A DNA stretch of 64,000 bases from Escherichia coli (lineage in GTDB: Bacteria > Pseudomonadota > Gammaproteobacteria > Enterobacterales > Enterobacteriaceae), in NCBI RefSeq assembly GCF_003334765.1, contig NZ_QOWT01000002.1; one strand, written 5' to 3'. The notes under the pieces are model-generated. The model worked only from the letters and a program-made list of their open reading frames with translations. It did no database searches and was not told the DNA's origin. Positions 25,754 through 26,018 of this stretch are shown piece by piece (the first letter of the stretch is position 1; the number at the start of each line of letters is the position of its first letter). The position numbers and the translations under genes are program-made.

Positions 25754-25821
25754 ACATAACCCTCAAGTGAAAATGGCTTTTTTATGTTGTGTATTGTGTT
25801 GTGTGTTTGCAGGCTCTTTCA

Positions 25822-25837
25822 TGCAGGTCTTATGCCA
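25822..25837 (-). promoter_or_regulatory. Candidate sigma54 (-24/-12) promoter for argT
   Basis: Minus strand reads TGGCAT-aagac-CTGCA, matching the sigma54 consensus TGGCAC-N5-TTGCA with correct spacing, about 70 nt upstream of the argT start; argT is known to be nitrogen (NtrC) regulated. Confidence 0.6.
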
Positions 25838-26018
25838 TCTTGACGACAACAGTAACATTCAACGTTAAATATGTTAATAAGACGTTGCATTATTGTCCTG
25901 AAGTTGAAGATAGCAGGTATAGCGGTTGAATCGCAGCGTTTCGATTGAATGGCAGAAACAAAATGTCGAGGATTTGATCGCGGTTGCAAAATTGCCCTGA
26001 AACAGGGCAACAGCGGAG

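Follow-up and report, generated by a model that had tools for sequence, protein, structure and literature searches.

The stretch of DNA analysed here, referred to as the window, is 64,000 nucleotides long and was identified as the ubiX, argT, hisJQMP region of the Escherichia coli chromosome. The open reading frame list and the annotation place ubiX at 26588-26019 and hisJ at 23968-24750, while argT, encoding the lysine/arginine/ornithine-binding protein and paralogous to hisJ, lies at 24971-25753 according to the same list and the RefSeq annotation of identical E. coli sequences. The hisQMP genes are found downstream of hisJ, and the minus strand carries all of these genes. The spacer between ubiX and argT corresponds exactly to positions 25754-26018 (265 nt), the span for which the initial annotation had proposed a sigma-54 promoter element. 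The 1.4 kb surrounding this element, here called argTp, is matched in each of the 5,426 complete E. coli genomes, in many of them at 100%.

The upstream end of the spacer contains a hairpin, UUGCCCUGUUUCAGGGCAA, on the minus strand at 25988-26010, which RNA folding resolves as a 9-bp stem (UUGCCCUG-UUUC-AGGGCAA) followed by UUUU. It is kept in most genera of a 16-genus alignment and is probably the terminator of the cvpA-purF-ubiX operon, insulating argTp from that operon. A terminator scan of the spacers found nothing comparable after argT in E. coli, the sole match in the argT-hisJ spacer being a weak 5-bp hairpin, and in the accompanying generic sigma-70 scan neither spacer yielded a promoter at the threshold used. 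The missing terminator is consistent with the literature, where argT-hisJQMP is treated as one transcription unit. GC-rich hairpins (for example GGCCCGG...CCGGGCC) are found directly 3' of argT in Klebsiella, Raoultella and Franconibacter and are absent from E. coli, Citrobacter and Salmonella; this distribution in the sequences suggests that the extent of readthrough from argT into hisJ may differ between lineages.

On the minus strand the spacer reads ...gtcaagATGGCATAAGACCTGCAtgaaag... around a 17-mer, ATGGCATAAGACCTGCA, at 25822-25838, which is assigned as the core of argTp from its sequence, a ChIP-seq site, its matrix score and its conservation. The motif had been described from the letters as TGGCAT-N5-CTGCA at 25822-25837 with sigma-54 spacing, and it reads as described: TGGCAT occupies 25837-25832, AAGAC 25831-25827 and CTGCA 25826-25822. 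The -24 doublet GG (25836-25835) and the -12 doublet GC (25824-25823) are ten bases apart, and the spacing fits the canonical TGGCAC-N5-TTGCW. The distance from the 3' end of the motif to the A of the argT ATG (25753) is 69 nt, close to the 70 nt first estimated.

The strength of the motif was measured with a position weight matrix derived from the 134 other E. coli sites in the sigma-54 ChIP-seq of Bonocora et al. 2015 (PMC4591121, Tables 1 and 2), with argT left out. The argT 17-mer scored 13.24, which is the highest value among the approximately 128,000 positions of the window on both strands. With this leave-one-out matrix 40 of the 134 bound sites score below argTp, corresponding to about the 30th percentile. 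Its departures from the consensus are common among bound sites, TGGCAT being present in 20/134 and CTGCA in 10/134. Two copies of the strict pattern TGGCAY-N5-YTGCW are present in the window, where 0.32 would be expected, while a consensus search allowing two mismatches found 19 sites against 26.7 expected and, showing no enrichment, is uninformative. Dinucleotide-shuffled windows contained on average 3.8 sites with the score of argTp or better; at the scale of the window the motif is therefore not significant by itself and does not prove function. For the coding strand of the 265-nt spacer the expected number of such sites is 0.008. The real window has one site scoring at least 13.24 against the shuffled mean of 3.8, and strong sigma-54 motifs therefore look under-represented here, as judged from this single window.

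Published binding data coincide with the motif. In the sigma-54 ChIP-seq study of Bonocora et al. 2015 (PMC4591121, Table 1) site OS22 has its peak centre at 2,425,886, a fold-above-threshold (FAT) of 12 and the identical 17-mer on the minus strand, assigned to argT; the published RpoN ChIP-seq, named beforehand as a check on the element, thus places a peak on the exact sequence. The motif centre of OS22, 2,425,890, corresponds to window position 25830 (window coordinates equal U00096.2 coordinates minus 2,400,060). OS22 is the only site from the two tables of that study within the range of the window, so the top matrix match is also the sole ChIP-bound site. Genomic SELEX with the RpoN holoenzyme (Shimada et al. 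2021) reports a peak in the argT/ubiX spacer, with values of 61% and 55%. In Salmonella the promoter of STM2355 (argT), TGGCATAAGACCTGCATG, has the same sequence and was positive in sigma-54 ChIP-chip. Given a constitutive activator, the Salmonella wild type expressed argT 3.5-fold above the level of an rpoN mutant, and argT is one of four operons shown experimentally at an earlier date to be sigma-54 regulated in that organism.

The SELEX data as reported also include peaks at about 29012, in the cvpA/dedD spacer, and at about 11372, in the yfbV/ackA spacer. Both regions are without a sigma-54 motif, the best matrix scores being 3.0 and 5.4, and the ChIP-seq tables list neither of them; these two signals are probably non-specific.

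The argTp element is highly conserved. One genome per species was compared across Enterobacteriaceae, giving 80 argT loci, and the element was found on the coding strand in 80/80, at 50-89 nt from the ATG and with scores of 11.8-16.6, within the strength of bound sites. Neither the GG nor the GC doublet varies in any of the 80 loci, whereas the flanking bases do. In the alignment of 16 genera the invariant bases are TGGCA, then A, then TGCA. Between two divergent E. coli strains the 17-mer is unchanged, and the differences are found only upstream of it. The conservation table of Bonocora et al. (PMC4591121) agrees on the conservation of argTp. The published binding data, together with the conservation in 80/80 orthologous loci, are decisive support for argTp.

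The element at 25822-25838 is accordingly identified, with a probability of about 0.95, as the core of argTp, the sigma-54 (RpoN) dependent, nitrogen-regulated promoter of argT. Sigma-54 binding at this exact sequence has been demonstrated in vivo and in vitro, and argT belongs to the published NtrC regulon. The nitrogen control proposed by the initial annotation agrees with these data: Brown et al. 2014 list E. coli argT among those known to belong to the NtrC regulon, and a 2019 paper states that argT has a sigma-54 promoter activated by NtrC. A single-copy argTp-lacZ fusion was up 2.4-fold in a glnK mutant. The rpoN-dependent expression was shown for the identical Salmonella promoter, while for E. 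coli we infer the start site and the position of NtrC.

The sequence of events is then as follows. Sigma-54 RNA polymerase occupies the GG (-24) and GC (-12) doublets as a closed complex, which under nitrogen limitation phosphorylated NtrC remodels through ATP hydrolysis. Transcription is predicted to start on the minus strand at 25811, 58 nt upstream of the argT ATG. The position follows the rule of Bonocora et al., 19 nt downstream of the motif centre, and the distance given in their table is 58; the start had the EcoCyc status 'P', predicted, in 2015 (per Bonocora, PMC4591121). The argT mRNA would then have a 58-nt C/A-rich leader, and the transcript probably runs on into hisJQMP, since argT of E. 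coli is not followed by an intrinsic terminator.

The 5' untranslated region of argT (25754-25810, minus strand) contains a C/A-rich tract, AAACACACAACACAATACACAACAT, at about 25808-25784 and a Shine-Dalgarno sequence, GAGGG, at 25764-25760. The tract is of the type targeted by the R1 seed of the GcvB sRNA. A GcvB R1-seed target has been verified at argT in Salmonella and is listed as conserved in E. coli, and argT is abundant in E. coli RIL-seq data.

A sigma-70-like promoter can be read directly upstream of the sigma-54 motif, at 25849-25877 on the minus strand. Its putative hexamers are a -35 TTAACA (25877-25872) and, after a 17-nt spacer, an extended -10 TGtTACTGT (25857-25849). Table S3 of Schaefer 2015 places the sigma-54 motif at +6 to +22 of a sigma-70-like argT start, which puts +1 near 25843. 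TTAACA does not vary among 16 genera, while the -10 lacks conservation beyond Escherichia, and within E. coli its last T is polymorphic, other strains having TACTGC instead of TACTGT.

This arrangement raises the possibility that sigma-54 holoenzyme, as long as it is not activated, acts as a roadblock repressing the adjacent sigma-70 promoter, the site then serving as operator as well as promoter. Such a function is compatible with argTp as a nitrogen-regulated promoter and is considered unlikely, though not negligible. It agrees with the class given to argT by Schaefer 2015, 'motif downstream of promoter', with the hexamers readable at the matching distance, with the cut of 10-60% that sigma-54 causes in sigma-70 abortive synthesis in vitro and with argT expression in the presence of sigma-54 being 23% of that without it (Schaefer 2015). 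In the same RNA-seq sheet, however, unrelated genes shift likewise (accC 151 vs 489; aceK 3443 vs 11459) and tRNA reads change about 7-fold in the opposite direction. Since unrelated genes shift by a similar factor, the 23% of argT barely exceeds a global normalisation effect. The second RNA-seq sheet of the study has no clear effect, and the inferred -10 is neither kept in other genera nor constant in its critical last T within E. coli. A dual use of the argTp site as operator and promoter is thus a possibility with weak support. That argT, hisJ, hisM and hisP drop in parallel in the Schaefer RNA-seq was considered as evidence of co-transcription or of repression at a hisJ sigma-54 site, and was rejected because unrelated genes in the sample shift similarly.

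The region upstream of hisJ contains a degenerate sigma-54-like element, ATGGCACGATAAGTGTA, at 24799-24815 on the minus strand, 48 nt before the hisJ ATG and with GT in place of GC at -12. It has the best score upstream of hisJ, 10.96 compared with 13.24 for argTp, which is under the 10th percentile (11.6) of the bound sites. The initial annotation had reported no equally good sigma-54 element at hisJ and suggested a matrix scan of both upstream regions. That part stands, with a weaker score and no ChIP site at hisJ, and is refined by the presence of this degenerate homolog. Among the bound E. coli sites GT at -12 is found in four (pspA, pspG, ygeW and one antisense site), all with TTGT. The E. 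coli hisJ copy differs from bound sites in combining GT at -12 with a G at the preceding T-rich position, and this GTGT combination is present in 0/134 of them. hisJ is absent from the ChIP-seq main text and all supplementary files of Bonocora et al. (PMC4591121), among high- or low-stringency sites. The passages of the genomic SELEX report that concern hisJ or coordinates 2424xxx-2425xxx contain only the argT/ubiX peak.

The two halves of the hisJ element differ in conservation across the family. TGGCAC is present at this position in 78/78 loci of Enterobacteriaceae, including those with a destroyed -12 half; overlap with the sigma-70 promoter of hisJ is one possibility for the fixed -24 half. 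The GC doublet is kept in 39/78 loci and the strength of bound sites in 28/78. Citrobacter and other genera have a strong homolog, ATGGCACGATAACTGCA. A -12 half of CTGCA or CTGCT, with scores of 15.8-16.9 that are above argTp, is present in most Citrobacter, in Franconibacter, Pseudocitrobacter and Superficieibacter, and in 1/3 Pluralibacter loci; 3/4 Klebsiella loci and a single Raoultella have CTGCC. In the window and in all 6 Escherichia loci sampled this half is GTGTA, and in most Enterobacter it is unrecognisable. The Salmonella dhuA / hisJ sequence, TGGCACGATAGTCGCATC, is the homolog of E. coli 24815-24799; both are located about 48 nt upstream of hisJ and downstream of NtrC sites. The Salmonella copy has been flagged in the literature as not an active promoter.

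The suggestion that the two tandem paralogs have diverged in promoter type agrees with the 2019 paper, in which hisJQMP has a sigma-70 promoter under ArgR and argT a sigma-54 promoter activated by NtrC, and was therefore already published. The same paper locates ArgR binding 17 bp upstream of the -35 of hisJ. When the hisJ sigma-70 hexamers were sought from this distance, a TTGCCT-like -35 could be placed, with no convincing -10. A highly conserved block in the argT-hisJ spacer, AATGCATACTTAAGCATTTTTAATGAAAAATAATACGTC (24853-24891, minus strand), resembles two ARG boxes 3 bp apart, a putative assignment based on the published ArgR position.

The same spacer contains the best NtrC site. A search of the whole 64 kb for TGCACC-N5-GGTGCA with up to three mismatches gave a single match with at most one mismatch, the palindrome TGCACTATCGTGGTGCA at 24896-24912, which has one. 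The AATGCATACTTAAGCATTTTTAATGAAAAATAATACGTC block begins about 4 nt from this palindrome, so NtrC and ArgR might compete. Brown et al. 2014 assigned a 23.7-fold NtrC ChIP-seq peak to hisJQMP, corresponding to 24881-24961 in the window, and the palindrome falls under it. This peak is without a sigma-54 ChIP motif, whereas the other peaks of the Ntr regulon that were compared overlap or abut one. NtrC-like sites recur in the argT-hisJ spacer throughout the family and are phased, their distances to the hisJ ATG being about 152, 174, 204 and 217 nt.

The search for an NtrC enhancer upstream of argT, which had been proposed along with the element, gave no consensus site at up to three mismatches in the E. 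coli ubiX-argT spacer; the sole consensus site is the downstream one. The best NtrC-like match in this spacer and the 3' end of ubiX (four mismatches) was rejected as merely the ubiX terminator hairpin. Two hexamers resembling TGCAAC half-sites are present upstream of argT, at -177 and -78. The NtrC ChIP-seq signal at argT is weak: the peak of Brown et al. 2014 over argTp (25801-25881 in the window) is 5.4-fold with P = 0.015 and flagged with an asterisk. In Enterobacter, Raoultella, Pluralibacter, Pseudocitrobacter and others an NtrC palindrome is located just after the ubiX stop codon, centred about 277 nt before the argT ATG, with a perfect TGCACCTGCAGGGTGCA at this position in one Enterobacter cloacae locus. 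Escherichia has lost the palindrome (alignment columns 62-92) by deletion, and Citrobacter and Salmonella have a degenerate form.

NtrC could reach E. coli argTp by looping from the downstream spacer, through weak upstream sites or by activation from solution. In the first case the activator of Escherichia argTp would be NtrC sitting at the argT-hisJ palindrome, about 0.93 kb downstream, and looping back with no upstream enhancer. We regard this as improbable, but worth weighing. The only consensus site lies under the 23.7-fold peak, which is not accompanied by a sigma-54 site, the post-ubiX palindrome of many genera is deleted or degenerate in Escherichia, Citrobacter and Salmonella, and the weak argT signal covers the core promoter itself, as looping would produce. 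Action of NtrC from sites far from a promoter, as reported by Reitzer and Magasanik 1986, is a precedent. Against it, a 198-bp argTp fragment (26009-25812 from its primers) without the argT-hisJ spacer is reported to be highly active on a p15A plasmid, giving the strongest GFP signal among 12 sigma-54 promoters, and the argTp 'promoter region' still responds to loss of glnK when placed at the lac locus. The plasmid result argues that the downstream NtrC sites are not strictly required, with copy number limiting what can be concluded, and the reported fragment also contains the sigma-70-like promoter. Neither the plasmid nor the lac-locus result is decisive, as NtrC at high concentration can act without a nearby site.

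The argT and hisJ patterns can also be combined in a rearranged wiring in Escherichia, where the ancestral upstream argT palindrome was deleted and the hisJ sigma-54 promoter lost its -12 GC while the NtrC cluster in the spacer is still strongly bound. The orphan enhancer would then either serve argTp from 0.93 kb downstream or have its effect at the sigma-70 promoter of hisJ, for example by displacing ArgR from the putative ARG boxes next to it. This scenario is speculative and rather doubtful; if true, hisJ would be a second genuine sigma-54 promoter in the genera with an intact CTGCA.

A chance match without function, with argT read only from a sigma-70 promoter, would be in line with the 3.8 equally good sites of the shuffled windows, the loose search without enrichment and the sigma-70-like start published 5 nt upstream of the motif (Schaefer 2015), but it is effectively refuted by the published binding data and has almost no probability left, since ChIP-seq, genomic SELEX and Salmonella ChIP-chip each detect sigma-54 at the exact sequence, argT expression is rpoN-dependent in Salmonella, and GG and GC are invariant in 80/80 loci despite variable flanks.

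The identification of argTp as the sigma-54 promoter of argT is not new. The promoter is among the textbook examples of the nitrogen-regulated sigma-54 regulon and has also served as an engineering part. The value of the result is one of validation, as a reading of the sequence alone picked the single sigma-54-bound site in 64 kb. Beyond this, the points of minor note are an enhancer-dependent argTp with no recognisable nearby enhancer and the strongly NtrC-bound, sigma-54-free hisJ spacer.

Strong NtrC sites are located roughly 100-140 bp upstream of glnAp2 (TTGGCACAGATTTCGCT), the archetypal NtrC-activated sigma-54 promoter. E. coli argTp, unlike glnAp2, is without a recognisable NtrC site in the 200-bp upstream spacer, but the two have the -24/-12 architecture, the activator and the nitrogen regulon in common. 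Salmonella Typhimurium argTr has the same 17-mer as E. coli argTp at the same position relative to argT. The promoter in the window is E. coli K-12 argTp itself, its 17-mer being the same as that of OS22 with no difference.
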